Assembly (NCBI GenBank): GCA_963704725.1
Contig: OY969934.1
Span: 1,408,001 to 1,472,000 of the forward strand
Source: an uncultured Actinomycetes bacterium
GTDB lineage: Bacteria; Actinomycetota; UBA4738; HRBIN12
Direction of reading: 5' to 3'
DNA length: 64,000 nucleotides
Shown: in pieces, positions 2,535 to 59,457 of the stretch
Layout of the letters: every line of letters begins with the position of its first letter
Position numbering within the stretch: position 1 is the first letter of the stretch
Position numbers and translations under genes: made by a program
Notes under the pieces: generated by a model
Seen by the model: the letters and a program-made list of their open reading frames with translations, nothing else
Told to the model about the DNA's origin: nothing
Databases searched by the model: none

Positions 2535-3332
2535 ATGGCCGCCACCAGGCTCGACCATCCCGTCTTCATCTCGGCCGACCAGATCCGCCGGCGCGAGTTC
2601 GTCACGACCCGGCGCGGCTACGACCCCGATCAGGTCCGCATCTACCTGGAGGAGCTCGCCGAGCAGGTCGACCTCATGGCCTCCATGATCCGCGAGGCCC
2701 GGCTGGAGGCGGACTCGGCGCTCCGTGCCGGCTTGCAGCCCGCCGACCCGTACGAGCGGCTGGCCGCGCGTGTGGCCTCGGTCCTGCGTGAGGCGGACGA
2801 GACCGCCGACCGGCTGCGGGTCGAGGGCCAGCGCGAGGCTGAGCGGATCACGATCGAGGCGCGAACGGATGCCGACCGGATCCGAACGGACGCGCAGGCC
2901 AAGGCGGAGCAGGCCCGGACCGAGGCCGAGCGAGCGTTGCGCGACGCCCGCGATCAGGCCGATCGCACGATCTCGGGGCTCGCCACGCGCCGGGAGGCGC
3001 TGGTCGAGCAGCTCGCGCAGATGCAGGAGCGGCTCCTCGGCGTGGCTCGCGAGCTCGAGGCCGCCATCGAGTCGCCGATGCAGGCGGACGACGCCGCCGG
3101 GGGGGACACCGAGGAGGTCTCGCCCGAACGGGTCGTCGACGTCCGCGGGCCCGAGGACCCGGGCGGGGACGTTCGCCGGATCGTGGCCGATGACATCCTC
3201 GAGGGGCTCGACGACCCCGCGTACGAGGAGCTCTGGGACGGGGCCGACGCGATGCAGCTCGAGGTCCCGAACATCCCGCCGCTCGACCTGTCCTGGGGCG
3301 ACGGCGACGACGAGCGCAACGGCTCGTCCTAG
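2535..3332 (+). CDS. DivIVA domain coiled-coil protein
   Basis: N-terminal ISADQIRRREFVTTRRGYDPDQV matches the DivIVA motif, followed by a long coiled coil and an acidic tail; GAGGAGG RBS before ATG 2535. Confidence 0.8.
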   Translation: MAATRLDHPVFISADQIRRREFVTTRRGYDPDQVRIYLEELAEQVDLMASMIREARLEADSALRAGLQPADPYERLAARVASVLREADETADRLRVEGQREAERITIEARTDADRIRTDAQAKAEQARTEAERALRDARDQADRTISGLATRREALVEQLAQMQERLLGVARELEAAIESPMQADDAAGGDTEEVSPERVVDVRGPEDPGGDVRRIVADDILEGLDDPAYEELWDGADAMQLEVPNIPPLDLSWGDGDDERNGSS

Positions 3333-50085: not shown

Positions 50086-51357
50086 GTGAGGGTCGACCGC
50101 ACCCCCCGGGCCAAGCGCTACCCGTGGTGGCAGCTGATCCTGCTCGGCCTGGCCGGGCTCATCGAGGCCATCCTGCGTCCGATCGGGCGGATGTGGCGCT
50201 CGGACCAGCCGCTGGAGCGGTACGGGCTGGCCCACTTCGCCAGCGTCGCCGGCGACACGTTCGTGGCCTTCGCCCTGGCCGGCTCGGTCTTCTTCGACGT
50301 CCCGGTCGGCCAGGCCAAGGGCAAGGTCGCGCTGTACCTGGCGCTGACGATGGCCCCGCTCGCGGTGGCCGCTCCGGTGCTGGTGCCGCTCCTGGACCGG
50401 GCCGGCCCGCGGCGCGCGATCTCGTTCGTCGCCGCGGTGGCGCGCGCGGGCGTCGCGGTCTACGCGGCCTCGCGCTTCCACACGCTCCTGCTGTACCCCT
50501 CCGCGTTCCTCCTCCTCGTGTTCTCGAAGGTGCACGCGATCACGAAGAACGGGCTCTCGATGGCGTACGCGGGCCCGAACGAGGGTCTGGTCCGGGCGAA
50601 CGCGCGCCTGGGACGGATCGGCGTGGGCGGGGCGCTCCTGGCCACGGGCCCCGCCCTCGGGCTGCTGCAGCTCGGCGACGCGAAAGCGGTGCTGTACGGC
50701 GCGGCGGCCGTCTACGCGGTCGCCGGGTTCCTCAACCTGCGCCTGCCGAACCCACACGTCCGAGGCGGCAAGGCCGAGGTCACCCGGACCGGCTCGATCT
50801 CGGCGCTGACCGCGCCGGCGATCGGGGCCGCCGGGCTGCGCGCCGCGACCGGCTTCCTGCTGTTCGCGCTCGCGTTCACCCTTCGCGGCGGCGACAACCC
50901 CACGTGGTGGTTCGCGGTCCTGGCCGGGGCGGGCACGGCGGGCGGGTTCGTCGGCGACCTCCTCGCGCCGCGGCTCCCCTCTTCGGTCCGGGAGGAGGCC
51001 GTGGTCGTGGGCTGCGTGATCGGGGCCGGCGTGGGGGCCGTGCTCGCCTTCGTCGCCTTCTCGCTCCCCGTGCTGCTCGTGTTCGCCGTCGCGGTCGGGG
51101 CCTCGGCCGAGCTCGGTCGGCTCGCGTTCCAGAGCCTCATGCAGCGGCTGGTCCCGGGCGGCGCCCACGGCCGAGTCTTCGTCCGGTACGAGGTGATCTT
51201 CCAGCTCGCCTGGGTGGTCGGGGCGCTGATCCCAGCGATGCTGCCCATCGACTTCCGCGGCGCGTTCCTCATCCTGGCGGGGCTGTATCTCGTAGCAGGT
51301 ATTGGTTATCTGACGCCGGACGTGGTGGCCCGGCGGCGGAGACGGCCGGCGACCTAG
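50086..51357 (+). CDS. MFS-type membrane protein
   Basis: About 12 TM helices; AGSVFF..GKVALYLALTMAP pattern typical of an actinobacterial MFS group. Confidence 0.75.
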   Translation: MRVDRTPRAKRYPWWQLILLGLAGLIEAILRPIGRMWRSDQPLERYGLAHFASVAGDTFVAFALAGSVFFDVPVGQAKGKVALYLALTMAPLAVAAPVLVPLLDRAGPRRAISFVAAVARAGVAVYAASRFHTLLLYPSAFLLLVFSKVHAITKNGLSMAYAGPNEGLVRANARLGRIGVGGALLATGPALGLLQLGDAKAVLYGAAAVYAVAGFLNLRLPNPHVRGGKAEVTRTGSISALTAPAIGAAGLRAATGFLLFALAFTLRGGDNPTWWFAVLAGAGTAGGFVGDLLAPRLPSSVREEAVVVGCVIGAGVGAVLAFVAFSLPVLLVFAVAVGASAELGRLAFQSLMQRLVPGGAHGRVFVRYEVIFQLAWVVGALIPAMLPIDFRGAFLILAGLYLVAGIGYLTPDVVARRRRRPAT

Positions 51358-54044: not shown

Positions 54045-55199
54045 ATGAACCGACCCGAGATCATCCTCGCGCCCGGACCCACGCCGATCCCGCCGGAGGT
54101 CCTGCTGGCGCAGGGCAGTCCGCTCGTCTATCACCGGGGGCCGGGGTTCGGCGGGCTGATGCGCGGCGTGACCAAGCGGCTGAAGGAGCTGTACCGGACC
54201 GATCGCGCCGACGTGCTCCTCATGACGTCGTCGGGGACCGGCGGCCTCGAGTCGGCGATCCAGAACGTGCTCTCACCCGGTGACGAGGTGCTCGTCCCGC
54301 TCGCCGGCTTCTTCGCGGAGCGGTGGAAGAAGCTCGCCGAGTCGCACGGCCTCGTCGTGCGGACCGTCGAGTACGACTGGGGCCGCCGCGTCGACCCCGC
54401 CGACGTCGCGGCCGCGCTCGCCGAGCACCCCGTCAGGGCCGTGCTCCTCACGCACTCCGAGACCTCCACCGGCGTGATCCAGCCGATCGAGGAGCTCGCG
54501 CGCGTCGCGAACGAGGCCGGCGCGTTGGTGATCGTCGACGCCGTGTCGAGCCTCGGCGCGGTGCCGTTCGCCTTCGATGCGTGGGGGATCGACGTCGCCG
54601 TCGGCGGGTCGCAGAAGGCCCTCAGCGCGTCGCCCGGGATCGCGTTCGTGGCGATCTCCGAGCGCGCCTGGTCGGCGCACGAGAGCGCGACGATGCCGCG
54701 GTTCTACTTCGACTGGAGCGCCTACAAGCGGTTCGCGGAGCTGCCGGAGCCGGAGAGCCCGTGGACCCCGGCGATCAGCGTCATGCAGGGCCTGGCGGCG
54801 GCGCTCGACCTGTACTTCCAGGACGGGGTGGAGGCCGCCATGCGGCGACACCGGATGCTCTCGCGCGCCGTGAAGGAGGGCGTGCAGGCGCTCGGGCTCG
54901 ACCTGTTCGGGGAGGGGCTGGAGCAGAACTGGACCGTGACCGCGATCCGGGCGCCGGAGGGGATCGACGCCGACACGATCAGCGACCGGATCCGTGCCGA
55001 CTTCGGCTGCGTGCTCGCTCCGGGGCAGGGCCCGCTCAAGGGCAAGGTGTTCCGGATCGGGCACTTCGGGTACTTCAGCGAGCTCGACATCGTCCGGGGG
55101 CTCGCCGCGCTCGAGATGACGCTGGAGCGGCTGGGCTACCCGGTGAAGCGAGGGGCGGCCGTCGGCGCGGCCGAGGGCGTGTTCCAGGAGCCGGCGTGA
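54045..55199 (+). CDS. Class V PLP aminotransferase (serine-pyruvate/phosphoserine type)
   Basis: APGPT, SSGTGGLES, HSETSTG, DAVSS, GSQKAL, RIGHFG; coupled to serA. Confidence 0.9.
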   Translation: MNRPEIILAPGPTPIPPEVLLAQGSPLVYHRGPGFGGLMRGVTKRLKELYRTDRADVLLMTSSGTGGLESAIQNVLSPGDEVLVPLAGFFAERWKKLAESHGLVVRTVEYDWGRRVDPADVAAALAEHPVRAVLLTHSETSTGVIQPIEELARVANEAGALVIVDAVSSLGAVPFAFDAWGIDVAVGGSQKALSASPGIAFVAISERAWSAHESATMPRFYFDWSAYKRFAELPEPESPWTPAISVMQGLAAALDLYFQDGVEAAMRRHRMLSRAVKEGVQALGLDLFGEGLEQNWTVTAIRAPEGIDADTISDRIRADFGCVLAPGQGPLKGKVFRIGHFGYFSELDIVRGLAALEMTLERLGYPVKRGAAVGAAEGVFQEPA

Positions 55200-56779
55200 G
55201 GGTCCTGGTCACCGAGAAGCTCTCCGACGCCGGGCTCGAGCTGCTCCGACGTGACTTCCAGGTCGACGTCCGCCCCGAGCTTGCCGCCGAAGGCCTGGGC
55301 GGGGAGATCGCGCCGTACGACGCGCTCATCGTGCGGTCGCAGACCCGCGTGGACGCCGACGTGTTCGCGGCCGGCGAGAACCTCAAGGTCGTGGCCCGGG
55401 CGGGGATCGGCCTGGACAACGTCGACGTCGAGGCGGCGACGCGCCGCGGCGTGATGGTCGTGAACGCGCCCCAGTCCAACGTCGTCTCGGCCGCCGAGCA
55501 CACGGTGGCGCTCCTGCTGGCCCAGGCCCGGAACATCCCCAAGGCCGATCGGGACCTGAAGGCCGGCCGGTGGGAGCGGTCCGCGTACCAAGGTGTCGAG
55601 CTGCAGGGCAAGACGCTCGGGGTCGTGGGTCTCGGCCGCGTGGGCGCCCTCGTGACGCAGCGGTGCGCCGCGTTCGGGATGCGGATCATCGCGTTCGACC
55701 CCTACGTCCAGAAGGAACGGGCCAAGGAGATGCGCGTCGAGCTGATGCCGACGCTCGAGGCGCTCCTCGTCCAGGCGGACTTCGTGACCGTGCACCTCCC
55801 GCGGACCCCGGACACGGAGGGGCTGATCGGCGAGCGGGAGCTCGCGCTGGTCAAGGAGGGCGTGCGCATCGTCAACACCGCTCGCGGCGGGATCGTCGAC
55901 GAGGCCGCGCTGGCCAAGGCGATCGAGGACGGCCGCGTGGGCGGCGCCGCGCTCGACGTCTTCGAGACCGAGCCGACCACCGAGTCGCCGCTGTTCGCGT
56001 TCGACCAGGTGGTGGTGACCCCGCACCTCGGCGCCTCGACGGCCGAGGCGCAGGACAAGGCCGGCACCTCGGTCGCCGAGATGGTCCGCCTTGCGCTCTC
56101 GGGCGAGTTCGTCCCCCACGCCGTGAACGTGTCCGCGGGGGCCGAGGTCTCCGAGACGGTCAAGCCGTTCCTGCCGCTCGCGCAGAAGCTCGGGGCGCTG
56201 CTCACGGGTCTCGCCGGCGGCGCGGTGCGGGGGGTCGAGGCCCAGTACCTGGGCCGGATCGCCGAGGCCGACACGCGGGTGTTGACGCTCGCCATCGTGA
56301 AGGGCGTGCTGTCCGGCGTGGTGTACGAGCCCGTCTCGTTCGTGAACGCGCCGATCATCGCGGGGGAGCGCGGCGTCTCCATCACCGAGATGCGGTCCAC
56401 GGTCTCGAGCGACTATGTGAACCTGGTCCACGTGCGCGCTGACACGGACGAGGGACCCGTCAGCGTGGCCGGCACCCTGGTCGGCAAGCGCAACGCCGAG
56501 CGCGTCATGCAGGTGAACGACTACGACATCGAGATGGCTCCGGCGCCCTTCATGCTGTTCTTCACGTACGACGACCGGCCCGGCATCATCGGCAAGGTGG
56601 GCACGATCCTCGGCGAGGCCGACATCAACATCGCGACGATGGACGTCGGCCGCCCGGTGCGCGGCGGGACGGCGCTCATGGGCCTGACGCTCGACAGCCC
56701 CGTCCCCGTCGAGGTCCTCGACCGGATCCGCGCCGAGACCGGCGCCGGCCCCACCCGGTTCATCGTCCTGTCCGACTAG
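55196..56779 (+). CDS. serA: D-3-phosphoglycerate dehydrogenase
   Basis: RAGIGLDNVD, GLGRVG, TPHLGASTAEAQ, ACT domain DRPGIIG. Confidence 0.96.
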   Translation: MRVLVTEKLSDAGLELLRRDFQVDVRPELAAEGLGGEIAPYDALIVRSQTRVDADVFAAGENLKVVARAGIGLDNVDVEAATRRGVMVVNAPQSNVVSAAEHTVALLLAQARNIPKADRDLKAGRWERSAYQGVELQGKTLGVVGLGRVGALVTQRCAAFGMRIIAFDPYVQKERAKEMRVELMPTLEALLVQADFVTVHLPRTPDTEGLIGERELALVKEGVRIVNTARGGIVDEAALAKAIEDGRVGGAALDVFETEPTTESPLFAFDQVVVTPHLGASTAEAQDKAGTSVAEMVRLALSGEFVPHAVNVSAGAEVSETVKPFLPLAQKLGALLTGLAGGAVRGVEAQYLGRIAEADTRVLTLAIVKGVLSGVVYEPVSFVNAPIIAGERGVSITEMRSTVSSDYVNLVHVRADTDEGPVSVAGTLVGKRNAERVMQVNDYDIEMAPAPFMLFFTYDDRPGIIGKVGTILGEADINIATMDVGRPVRGGTALMGLTLDSPVPVEVLDRIRAETGAGPTRFIVLSD

Positions 56780-56835
56780 CGTTTCGTCTCGAAGGGCTTC
56801 CGGCGCGGCCCCGGTCCGTGCTAAAATTCTTGGCT

Positions 56836-56970
56836 AATGAGGCGACTCCTGGTGATCGCGAGGGATCGGAGCGGCGTCACGCCGCTCCCGGCGGCCGTCT
56901 GACGGCCGCGCTCGCCGCCCGGCGAGCTTTCGGATCACCCGCACCTCGTTCACTCGAAGATCAGGAGTCG
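56836..56970 (+). promoter_or_regulatory. Structured 5' leader / translational attenuator of the MFS operon
   Basis: Three tandem perfect hairpins closed by GGTGATC/GATCACC; CGACTCCTGGT is complementary to the SD region ATCAGGAGTCG. Confidence 0.65.
56837..56902 (+). CDS. Putative leader peptide MRRLLVIARDRSGVTPLPAAV
   Basis: ATG lies 9 nt after the -10 box TAAAAT (56822-56827); the ORF is embedded in a structured leader and overlaps the anti-SD. Confidence 0.55.
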   Translation: MRRLLVIARDRSGVTPLPAAV

Positions 56971-56974
56971 TTCG

Positions 56975-58219
56975 ATGCGCACCACCACCACCACAGCATC
57001 CAGGAGCGCCGTCCGCCGGCTCGCCCTGGCCCGCCTGATCTCGCTCACGGGCGGCGCGGCCGCGTTCGCGGCGCTGAACTTCACGATCTACGACCGCACG
57101 CACTCGCCCGCCTGGCTCTCGGCCTCCCTGCTCCTGACGTTCGGGGTGGGCGGGCTGTTCGCACCGCTGGGAGGTGCCCTGGGCGACCGCTTCGACCGTC
57201 GACGCGTGATGATCGCCTCCGATCTCGCCGGGATGGTGTGCTTCGGAGCCATGGCGTTCGTCCGGGATCCGGGCGTGCTGCTCGCGATCGGGTTCGTCAC
57301 CGCGGTCGTCGAGTCGCCGTTCTGGTCGGCCTCGGCCGCGGCGATCCCCAACCTGGTCGCCGAGCAGGATCTGGCGTGGGCCAACGGTCTCGTCCAGATG
57401 GGCGGCAACGCCGGGATCATGCTCGGGCCCGCCATCGGAGGCGCGGTGCTCGCCGCCACAGGTCCGGGCCCGGTCTTCGCCGCCAACGCGGTCTCGTTCG
57501 CCATCTCCGCGGCCCTCGTCGCGACGGTGCACGGGCGCTTCTCCGAGGAGCCCGGCGCGCACGCCGACGAGCACCGCGGTCTGCGGGCCGGGTTCGTGTT
57601 CATCGCGCGGGACCGCGTGCTGCGCACGATCGTGCTGGCGTGGGTCGTGTTCGTCCTCGGCCTGGGCATGGTCATGGTGGCGGACGTCCCGCTCGCGGAG
57701 CTGTTCGGCACGGGCGCGACCGGCTACGGCCTGATCTTCGCGGCGTGGGGGGCCGGGTCGGTCCTCGGATCGCTCTCGGGCCGGTGGCTGAACGAGCGGA
57801 CCGAGCTTCCGGCCCTGGTGGTGGGCACCGTGGTGATCGCGGTCACGACCGCCGGCGTCTCGGTCTCGCCGTGGTTCGCACTCGTGCTCGGGCTCGTGCT
57901 GCTGGCCGGGATCGCCGACGCGTTGACGATGGTCGCCGAGACCGGGATCCAGCAGCGCCGCACGCCGGACGCCGTCCGCAGCCGCGTCTCGGCGGCGTCG
58001 GAGGCCGTGATCCACCTCGCGCTCGCGGGCGGATTCGTGCTCGGGGGGCCCGCGCTGCAGGCGCTCGGGCCGCGCGGCGTCTACGCGGTGGGTGGGGGCC
58101 TCGGGCTGGTCGGCGCGACGGTGCTGTTGCCGATCCTGCGCGGCGGCCGTCCCGGCGCGCCGGTGCCGGTTGCCGGCGAGCCCGCCCCGGCCGAGATGGT
58201 GCTCGAGGGGGTTTCGTGA
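56975..58219 (+). CDS. MFS transporter (DHA3/MefA-like)
   Basis: Motif A GALGDRFDRRRVM, AAIPNLV, QRRTPDAVRSRV. Confidence 0.9.
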   Translation: MRTTTTTASRSAVRRLALARLISLTGGAAAFAALNFTIYDRTHSPAWLSASLLLTFGVGGLFAPLGGALGDRFDRRRVMIASDLAGMVCFGAMAFVRDPGVLLAIGFVTAVVESPFWSASAAAIPNLVAEQDLAWANGLVQMGGNAGIMLGPAIGGAVLAATGPGPVFAANAVSFAISAALVATVHGRFSEEPGAHADEHRGLRAGFVFIARDRVLRTIVLAWVVFVLGLGMVMVADVPLAELFGTGATGYGLIFAAWGAGSVLGSLSGRWLNERTELPALVVGTVVIAVTTAGVSVSPWFALVLGLVLLAGIADALTMVAETGIQQRRTPDAVRSRVSAASEAVIHLALAGGFVLGGPALQALGPRGVYAVGGGLGLVGATVLLPILRGGRPGAPVPVAGEPAPAEMVLEGVS

Positions 58220-59457
58220 GCACTCGCCCCCGCACGGCCGTTCGCCGGCTCGCCGCCGGCCGCCTCATCTCGGTGACCGGCGGCGCGGCGGCCTACACGG
58301 CGCTGAACTTCACGGTGTGGAACGTGACCCGCTCCCCGTGGATGCAGTCGCTGTCGCTGCTGCTCACGTTTGGCGTCTCCGGGTTCCTGCAGCCGTTCGC
58401 CGGCGCGCTGGGGGATCGGTTCGACCGGCGCCGCGTGATGGTGCTGTCCGAGGGGATCGCGGCCGCGTTCTTCACGGCGATGGCCTTCGTCCACGACCCG
58501 GGGATCCTCATCGCGCTCGCGTTCGGGTCGGCGATCGCGGAGCTGCCGTTCCTCACCGCCTCCCGGGCCGCGATCCCGAACCTCGTGGAACGGCCCGAGG
58601 ACATCTCGTGGGCCAACAGCCTCCTGACGGTCGGCATCCACGCCGGCATCGCGGTGGGGCCGCTGATCGGCGGTGTCCTGCTCGGGCTGGCAGGGCCGCA
58701 GTGGGTCTTCGGGATCAACGCGATCTCGTTCGCCGTCTCGCTGCTGATCACGCTCACGGTGCACGGACGGTTCCAGCAGGATCGCGAGGCGAGCGAGGAG
58801 CACGGCGGCCTCGCGGCCGGGATCACGTTCCTGCGGCGCGACCCCGTGCTGCGGCGCCTGTCCGCGGCGTGGTTCGTGTTCGTCCTCGGGATGGGGATGA
58901 GCATGGTCGCCGACGCTCCCCTGGCGACGTCGTTCGGCGCGGGTGGGATGGGCTTCGGCCTCCTGATCGCCTGCTGGGGGGGCGGCTCGGTGCTCGGGTC
59001 CGCGGCGGGCCGCTGGATGAACGCCCGGACCGAGCCGGTGTGGCTCGTGATCGGCTCGTTCGGGATCGCGGCCACGGCCTTCGGCGTGGGGTTCGCGCCG
59101 GTGTTCCCGTTCGCGCTCGGGGCGCTGCTGGTGATGGGGATGTGCGACGGCCTCACGATCGTCTCGGAGAACAGCATCATGCAGCGCCGGACCCCGGACG
59201 CGGTGCGGAGCCGGACGATGGCCGCGTTCGAGGCCCTGCTCTCCATCGGGCTCGTGGTGGCGTACCTGGTCGCCGGACCCGTGCTCGGCGCCGTCGGCCC
59301 GCGGTGGATCTACCGGATCGGCGGGCTGTCCGCGGCGGCGGCGGCCATCATGCTGGTGCCGATGCTGCGGCTCCGGCGGGTGGAGGAGCAGGCACCTCCG
59401 GAGGTCGCCGTACCGGCTCCGGAGGCGACCGAGGTCGCGACCGAGCAGGTCTCGTGA
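58216..59457 (+). CDS. MFS transporter (DHA3/MefA-like), paralogue of the upstream gene
   Basis: Same motifs (RLISVTGG.AA, GALGDRFDRRRVM, QRRTPDAVRSR); GTGA overlap. Confidence 0.9.
   Translation: MSTRPRTAVRRLAAGRLISVTGGAAAYTALNFTVWNVTRSPWMQSLSLLLTFGVSGFLQPFAGALGDRFDRRRVMVLSEGIAAAFFTAMAFVHDPGILIALAFGSAIAELPFLTASRAAIPNLVERPEDISWANSLLTVGIHAGIAVGPLIGGVLLGLAGPQWVFGINAISFAVSLLITLTVHGRFQQDREASEEHGGLAAGITFLRRDPVLRRLSAAWFVFVLGMGMSMVADAPLATSFGAGGMGFGLLIACWGGGSVLGSAAGRWMNARTEPVWLVIGSFGIAATAFGVGFAPVFPFALGALLVMGMCDGLTIVSENSIMQRRTPDAVRSRTMAAFEALLSIGLVVAYLVAGPVLGAVGPRWIYRIGGLSAAAAAIMLVPMLRLRRVEEQAPPEVAVPAPEATEVATEQVS

Follow-up and report, generated by a model that had tools for sequence, protein, structure and literature searches.

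A conserved upstream open reading frame predicted to gate translation of tandem MFS transporter genes in actinobacteria

What decides whether two tandem transporter genes are translated, if the first one's ribosome-binding site can pair with an open reading frame (ORF) lying upstream of it? The question is raised by a 64-kb stretch of contig OY969934.1, from an uncultured Actinomycetes bacterium, which is the whole of the DNA examined and is called the window here; coordinates are window positions. In it, two genes of the major facilitator superfamily (MFS), MFS1 and MFS2, stand behind a leader that carries a short upstream ORF (uORF). An initial annotation proposed that early codons of this uORF sequester the Shine-Dalgarno (SD) sequence of MFS1 and that a stalled ribosome frees it, the signal being either starvation for branched-chain amino acids (BCAA) or an antibiotic, with macrolide-resistance leaders as precedent. 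We find that the leader belongs to a real, conserved cis-regulatory RNA family, uncatalogued before and absent from Rfam 15, that would act like known uORF attenuators. That a uORF-dependent translational switch exists, whatever its signal, seems to us very likely indeed.

The leader and its start-to-start helix

Our counts rest on a genome scan queried with an alignment of the window MFS1 protein and 37 of 120 listed homologue matches. The scan gave 217 related stretches, of which 80 were kept, making up 74 loci, and 70 of the 74 loci carry the label Actinomycetota. An architecture of promoter, ATG, and anti-SD is present in 70 of the 74 loci and in the window, or 71 of 75 sequences; both uORF and anti-SD, on whose conservation the initial annotation had staked its proposal, are therefore conserved. 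Counts out of 71 refer to these 70 leader-bearing loci plus the window, and counts out of 52 to an aligned subset of closer loci. The four loci without a called architecture are two at contig edges (L063, and L015, in which the 3' half of the leader is still present), one with a 5'-broken gene (L052), and one, L058, that has no leader and whose MFS gene sits directly behind another gene. The parts of the leader in the window are as follows.

56819..56827, plus strand: extended -10 element TG-c-TAAAAT (TAAAAT at 56822-56827), a putative promoter called on conservation
56833..56836, plus strand: predicted transcription start and 3-4 nt 5' leader, from promoter spacing and a purine-pyrimidine (RY) pattern
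56837..56902, plus strand: uORF of 21 codons, encoding MRRLLVIARDRSGVTPLPAAV, from the ORF call and family conservation
56842..56853, plus strand: 5' arm of helix P1, the anti-SD, in uORF codons 3-6; pair probability 0.72-1.0, covarying with the 3' arm
56851..56857, plus strand: 5' arm of helix P2, sequence GGTGATC, partner 56933-56939; a conserved pairing in the 52 loci
56868..56888, plus strand: variable hairpin inside the uORF, from folding; missing from the 13-codon class
56891..56909, plus strand: hairpin with the uORF stop codon at its loop, from folding
56910..56927, plus strand: conserved hairpin P4, with 97.7% of cells paired in the 52 loci
56933..56939, plus strand: 3' arm of P2, from folding and the 52-locus pairing
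56940..56959, plus strand: C-rich linker (family mean at -45 to -15, 14.5 C versus 5.9 G), possibly a 30S standby or Rho loading site
56960..56977, plus strand: 3' arm of P1, with the SD AGGAG (56963-56967) and the MFS1 start codon, from folding and covariation

The coordinates first given for the -10 box, the uORF, the helix, and the hairpins all check in the window, and the three hairpins form at 0.78-1.0 per pair and are near perfect. Within P1, CGACTCCTGGT (56843-56853, codons 3-6) pairs with ATCAGGAGTCG (56960-56970) over 11 bp at pair probabilities of 0.89-1.0. None of 200 shuffles is as stable as the region 56830-56990, whose fold has an energy of -85 kcal/mol (z = -5.3), and a fold with z < -2 is found in 67 of the 71 leaders. 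Pairing of the first 4-6 uORF codons with the MFS SD and spacer or start region, 90-155 nt apart, occurs in every leader (71/71), and the uORF AUG is itself part of the helix, joined to the MFS start region, in 50 of the 71 minimum-energy folds.

The initial annotation had suggested covariation across orthologous leaders as a check, and the arms of P1 do covary. When the arms of different leaders were swapped, own arms paired better than swapped ones, whether over 24 distinct 5' words (-21.5 versus -15.4 kcal/mol; 0 of 10000 permutations), over 24 clades with one member each (-19.6 versus -14.4 kcal/mol; 0 of 2000 permutations in each of 50 draws), or over 11 divergent clades (-17.6 versus -10.8 kcal/mol). 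A quick tree was used, and 2 of the 71 rows, with broken MFS frames, were omitted. RNAalifold on the 52-row alignment recovered P1 and chose a weak alternative for the interior, so the three helices used for the 52-locus pairing counts were named by hand. In that named structure, towards which such counts lean, 89.8% of cells are paired and 30 cells carry two-sided changes (0 of 500 shuffles).

Two further helices of the original scheme fared unequally. The pairing of GGTGATC with GATCACC around the hairpins, here P2, is conserved in the family (90.3% of cells paired in the 52 loci, with two-sided changes in 2 of its 5 pairs), but in the window it is outside the minimum-energy fold, where its 5' arm overlaps the anti-SD and competes with the last 3 bp of P1. 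The alternative helix or pseudoknot AATGAGG/CCTCGTT is present in the window, but it attains 7 bp only there (1 of 71 leaders), and matched pairs do no better than mismatched ones (p = 0.20).

The promoter stands at a nearly fixed distance from the uORF. The family consensus of its extended -10 element is TGc-TACACT; TGnTAnnnT occurs in 68 of 71 leaders and a weaker form in 3. From the -10 box to the uORF ATG there are 8-10 nt in all 71 and exactly 9 nt in 62, against an ATG 8-10 nt downstream at 1 of 74 other TGnTAnnnT sites in the same loci, taken as a control. A sigma-70 scan of 56600-57100 gave neither promoter nor terminator, a blank that reflects the scanner's demand for a -35 match. Position -3 from the uORF AUG is a purine in 66 of 71 leaders and position -2 a pyrimidine in 71 of 71, which, with the RYN transcription-start preference described in 10.1101/834739, fits a transcription start 3 nt before the AUG. 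The window is an exception to the purine majority, its position -3 being C, and there G56833 would be the likelier start. No SD-like word (GGAG or GAGG) lies upstream of the uORF in any of the 71 leaders, and the AUG is predicted to sit about 3 nt inside the 5' end, at +4, making the uORF near-leaderless. Short leaders may be normal in this lineage, given that crude calls for other long ORFs in these loci, with orthologues unmerged, place the -10 box most often 6 nt from the start (17/54) and next most often 9 nt (11/54). Genes whose start site is no more than 5 nt away were left out of the leadered set in PMC9094748.

In 22 loci (L001-L014, L016-L021, L048, and L049; e.g., L003 at about 3010-3025) the palindrome GTGA-N6-TCAC has its end 29-30 nt upstream of the -10 hexamer, and counting up to 110 nt away, 25 of 71 have it; it is shifted in L022, L037, and L041, found in both orientations, and absent from the window. 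It resembles the CRP/GlxR site, and it may add a second, transcriptional layer of control. By eye, with no formal search, no AT-rich WhiB7-type site is evident upstream of the -35 region.

To judge from the aligned sequences, the uORF is selected as an ORF and hardly as a peptide. Its length ranges from 4 to 27 codons, 12 uORFs having 4-5, and a single one of 72 codons comes from a record in which the MFS gene is likewise frameshifted. For 45 of 52 loci, whose ORFs come in 7 lengths, the in-frame stop nevertheless shares a single alignment column, with TAG, TGA, and TAA all used. In 63 of 71 leaders the distance from a stop in the uORF frame to the MFS start is 66-89 nt, versus 4 and 2 for the other frames, and in 45 of 71 folds the uORF stop touches a hairpin loop, either overlapping it or lying next to it. 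From uORF stop to MFS start (56903-56974 in the window) the median is 77 nt, whether the uORF has 4 codons or 24; this nearly constant stretch could be a ribosome-release timer or a spacer against reinitiation. Readthrough or frameshift fusion of the uORF to MFS was rejected, since the two stand in each of the three possible relative frames and are separated by a stop in 70 of 71. With the architecture in 71 of 75 sequences, arms that covary, and a stop that keeps its frame, there is support for the view that the MFS SD is sequestered by early codons of a uORF predicted to be near-leaderless, and the structure of the leader and the coding of the uORF are well supported.

The family can be recognized from its own model and matches no catalogued one. 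A covariance model built from the 52 loci, with the promoter columns kept in, recovered 17 of the 19 leaders that had been held out at E <= 1 and 12 at E <= 0.01; it gave no further copy in the 64-kb window, and in 1.2 Mb nothing outside MFS leaders scored below E 0.3. An Rfam search, also suggested with the first description, gave no match of Rfam 15 at gathering threshold in the window, the best leader E value being 3.8, and no match at the leaders of 9 of the 74 loci; two matches of E about 4 at the leader were rejected as chance. A c-di-GMP-I-GGC riboswitch above the Rfam gathering score, at L053:2254-2340 on the minus strand, is unrelated to the leader.

What the switch may sense

Switching was computed by blocking a ribosome footprint along each uORF, with the cost of opening the MFS start region as readout. 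Over the 71 leaders, placing a ribosome on codon 1 lowers the median cost from 14.9 to 8.7 kcal/mol. The saving is about 6 kcal/mol for codons 1-7 and 4 for codon 8, and it has vanished by codon 10; for the window, the edge of opening shifts from codon 9 to codon 11 with the assumed footprint. That a stalled ribosome frees the SD is thus the likely logic, as had been supposed: modeled ribosomes at codons 1-8 open it and later ones do not. The uORF start can be opened for 10.3 kcal/mol while the 3' arm is still lacking, versus 15.3 once it has been made (7.2 versus 16.3 in the window), and this cheaper early opening suggests a decision made during transcription.

A sequence of events can be proposed from these properties. 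Transcription would start about 3 nt before the uORF AUG and, there being no room for an SD, a ribosome would load at the 5' end while the leader is still being made. Once it had passed about codon 8-9, or finished a 4-5-codon ORF, the 5' arm would pair with the MFS SD and start some 100 nt off, a pairing backed by folding and covariation in which the inner helices would bring the P1 arms close. By our computation, P1 would also bury the uORF start and lock the mRNA off, and Rho may then terminate transcription inside the untranslated gene, as the example of toiL suggests. A ribosome held on codons 1-8 would keep the anti-SD within itself, so that in the model the SD stays free and MFS1, with the coupled MFS2, is translated. 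The trigger would be a ribosome arrested on the start codon, or early in elongation, by translation-inhibiting antibiotics (types such as pleuromutilin, lincosamide, streptogramin A, or tetracycline) or by general translation stress of a similar kind, and the outputs would be efflux-type, DHA3-like pumps; it is the signal and the transporter substrate that we infer.

The choice of signal has two roots. No control-codon run or arrest motif is conserved across the 71 uORFs, and the shortest have 4 codons, so the trigger is most likely arrest at the start or in early elongation. Start-arrest uORFs are described as responding to retapamulin, lincosamides, and tetracycline, namely, toiL (PMC12121999), cplR and vmlR2 (PMC10201436), and vmlR (PMC9226507), and this, joined to the efflux-type output, makes antibiotic or general translation stress the best guess. 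We lean, with modest confidence, toward a translational attenuator, for the most part indifferent to peptide sequence, that responds when a ribosome is arrested on a near-leaderless start or shortly beyond it, its trigger most likely being translation-inhibiting antibiotics or general translation stress. A sharper version is offered tentatively and may well be too specific: a one-shot co-transcriptional initiation sensor, in which the start-to-start helix would lock both starts unless a ribosome dwells on the AUG 3 nt from the 5' end, the spacer of about 77 nt would serve as a timer that clears the ribosome before the SD appears, and start-arresting antibiotics would be sensed without control codons. 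If this were true, an unrecognized family of inducible antibiotic efflux pumps would reside in the core genome of widespread uncultured actinobacteria.

Several observations weigh against sensing of arrest at such a start. In mycobacteria, an RTG at the very 5' end is described as necessary and sufficient for leaderless initiation (PMC4633059), and by that rule an AUG at +4 may initiate weakly. Computed switching, read from rounded values, is small in about 10 of the 71 leaders. In the 52 loci, the count of pairs with a two-sided change is not above that of shuffles (181/500), and single-position, tree-aware covariation showed nothing, with too few independent pairs (at most 5). The link to antibiotics is indirect: no characterized transporter is close to this one (none in PDB, none in plasmids at 1e-20, and none in Atlas); its gene lies in a syntenic core region among metabolic genes, and for MFS1 metabolite exporters of the EntS type outscore drug pumps. 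Finally, Lys or Arg stands within codons 2-5 of all 71 uORFs (56840-56851 in the window), which hints at some peptide or codon specificity outside the model.

The strongest alternative, although unlikely, keeps the anatomy and dispenses with stalling: ribosome traffic would open the gate, and MFS output would follow 70S occupancy of the near-leaderless start, reporting free-70S supply or the initiation-to-elongation step. It shares with our preferred reading a peptide that is not conserved, and it could account for a start fixed 9 nt from the -10 box (62/71) rather than at the 6 nt commonest for other genes (17/54); small leaderless ORFs can alter downstream translation, according to the review PMC9031893. 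It sits poorly, however, with a P1 that, once formed, buries the uORF start, its AUG paired in 50 of 71 folds and its opening cost raised by 5 kcal/mol, and an elongating ribosome would presumably clear codons 1-8 long before the SD is transcribed.

Slightly less probable again is the same switch with a different signal: the ribosome would stall at codons 2-5 when charged tRNA for Arg or Lys is scarce, or when AGG or CGA is decoded slowly. The Lys and Arg codons just noted, with Arg in 68 of 71 uORFs, lie inside the opening window; codon 2 is AAA, AAG, AGA, or AGG in 62 of 71, versus 4.5% of 288 crudely called SD-led genes, and AGG and CGA make up 11% and 7% of Arg codons. The A at +4 is kept even when unpaired, with 30 A-C oppositions among 69. 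Yet Lys and Arg interchange freely, three uORFs lack Arg, there is no tandem run, and codon 2 is Asn or Asp in the window's two closest relatives; induction of an exporter-type gene upon starvation is also hard to rationalize. An A-rich second codon may simply help initiation.

Improbable on present evidence is a fold opened by a ligand, an RNA-binding protein, or temperature, with the uORF incidental. The stable multihelix fold and the conserved hairpin P4 would suit it, as would the tendency of actinobacterial riboswitches to hide the SD (PMC1262725). An ATG held invariant at a fixed distance from the promoter and a stop that keeps its frame argue against it, and so does an interior that varies in length and sequence, in which no conserved unpaired pocket was seen and to which no Rfam family matches.

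The BCAA signal of the initial annotation, by which the leader would resemble actinobacterial ilvB leaders or the LEU element of leuA, now looks very improbable. The window does have LLVI inside the opening window, most uORFs have two Leu/Ile/Val codons in positions 2-8, and the LEU element likewise pairs Leu codons with the SD (PMC1262725), but a run of at least three such residues occurs in 6 of 71 uORFs and none of them is present in codons 2-8 in 5. Leu4 is CTC in 55 of 56 cases (background use about 45%) and Val6 is GTG in 48 of 48 (background about 47%), so these codons are held by base pairing. Moreover, no terminator was found in the 56600-57100 scan, the alternative helix is not conserved, and the regulated gene is an MFS gene and not a BCAA gene; in PMC1262725, mutation of the ilvB control codons is reported to have had no effect. 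Least credible of all is a macrolide-specific leader arrested at the window's RDR, even though Mef(A) is a distant relative of the transporter and a stall with codon 10 in the P site, as the geometry in PMC12583479 places it, opens the SD with a 15-nt upstream footprint: codon 10 is at the edge of the opening window, a 12-nt footprint leaves the SD closed, and of the 71 uORFs, 2 have RDR and 8 have any R/K-x-R/K, 2 of them within the first 10 codons.

The regulated genes and their neighborhood

The genes around the leader in the window are these.

55196..56779, plus strand: serA, upstream, context only; TIGR01327 above cutoff
56975..58219, plus strand: MFS1, 414 aa, DHA3/H+-antiporter-like, in the EntS/Tet(V)/Tap/Mef(A) neighborhood; TIGR00900, Pfam MFS_1 and MFS_3
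58216..59457, plus strand: MFS2, 413 aa, a 53% identical paralog whose GTG overlaps the MFS1 stop

MFS1 matches TIGR00900 at E 8e-51 and 173 bits (cutoff 320), and its matches to the named pumps of NCBIfam all fall under the curated cutoffs (bits/cutoff: Tet(V), 58/640; Tap, 39/625; Mef(A), 27/675; EntS, 100/324). MFS2, too, is nearest an H+-antiporter (DHA3-like) model and under every named cutoff; from the overlap of the two genes, it is probably translationally coupled to MFS1 and subject to the same switch. The leader precedes whichever paralog comes first in the operon, and three tandem MFS paralogs stand behind one leader in L005, L011, L014, L016-L020, and L049. A third, distant MFS gene of the window (50086-51357), a weak TIGR00900 match 5.6 kb upstream, has no copy of the leader. 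Behind the MFS1 start comes a CA-rich stretch encoding a Thr run (56978-56998); downstream CA repeats are said to enhance translation (review PMC9031893).

The serA gene lies within 400 nt of the uORF in 55 of 71 cases. Nine leader-bearing loci are in neighborhoods without it; since the leader travels with MFS into these, it belongs to the transporter, and a serA 3' element was rejected on the same ground. At L073:2195-3055 and L067:11290-12147, two loci of one clade, the gene directly behind the MFS gene with the leader encodes an aminoglycoside kinase that is APH(6)-like; at 131 bits it falls short of the NCBIfam cutoff of 325, and it is the sole resistance-like neighbor seen. The L073 kinase gene has its own -10-like hexamer 7-10 nt before its start. 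Two loci, L045 and L052, are labeled Ca. Velamenicoccus (Omnitrophota); L045 has the leader, its MFS nests among actinobacterial sequences, and both are possibly misbinned contigs.

Meaning and relation to known attenuators

Searches of the Creative Commons literature in PMC and bioRxiv yielded no account of this leader, nor of any MFS gene under an antibiotic-sensing SD switch of the leaderless type. With uORFs of 4 to 27 codons built on a shared fold, the family is a natural series in which the demands of the RNA can be told apart from those of the peptide. It is also a compact test system of 100-160 nt for asking if actinobacteria translate from an AUG that lies a few bases in from the 5' end, and if a start of this kind is able to sense antibiotics. 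An inducer, if found, would point to a likely substrate for an uncharacterized MFS clade, and the leader could then serve as a small reporter of translation inhibitors in actinobacterial hosts.

Measured against described classes, the leader has two marks of uORF-based translational attenuators, a conserved, selected uORF and an SD helix with one arm in the uORF; the marks of BCAA leaders and the LEU element, of macrolide +X+ leaders of the ermD/tlrB type, and of polycysteine attenuators are lacking. One attenuated gene, cmlA, encodes an MFS protein. In the cmlA (cat/ermC) attenuators, as reviewed in PMC8876359, a leader peptide likewise controls access to the SD, and the cmlA product is an efflux-type membrane protein; in contrast, those leaders are SD led and have a conserved, drug-specific stall sequence and alternative stem-loops, none of which is conserved here. 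The LEU element of actinobacterial leuA, as described in PMC1262725, has a base stem made of uORF Leu codons and the SD but needs a Leu run and a pseudoknot upstream of leuA, and neither is conserved in our family. The whiB7/wblC uORF (PMC10274678) is also actinobacterial, variable in sequence, and responsive to antibiotics and amino acid starvation; it is described as Ala enriched and as acting by transcription antitermination, whereas here the SD is paired.

Similar to the leader in their place at the 5' end are the mycobacterial polycysteine attenuators with leaderless small ORFs, such as Ms5788A (10.1101/834739), in which a stalled ribosome blocks a duplex that hides the SD. Those use tandem Cys codons and an AUG or GUG at +1, as described there, whereas 1 of our 71 uORFs contains Cys, a run of control codons is missing, and +4 is the predicted place of the AUG. 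The uORFs of the ARE-ABCF genes cplR, vmlR, vmlR2, and lsaA (PMC10201436 and PMC9226507) are characterized as SD led, from Firmicutes, and linked to an intrinsic terminator; here no terminator was found in 56600-57100, and the anti-SD is formed by the first codons. Like the shortest of ours, they are very short (MR[I/M], MK[L/Q], and MIN), they are thought to sense arrest after initiation, and SD sequestration is part of their control. The toiL uORF of E. coli topAI, as presented in PMC12121999, differs in having its own SD, a long leader, and a toxin-antitoxin operon, against an SD-less uORF of 4-27 codons about 3 nt from the predicted 5' end and upstream of MFS genes, and we claim no homology between the two. 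The logic that we propose is alike all the same: uORF sequence of toiL pairs with the downstream ribosome-binding site, a stall at the start codon or within the uORF unmasks that site, and antibiotics of several classes act on it.

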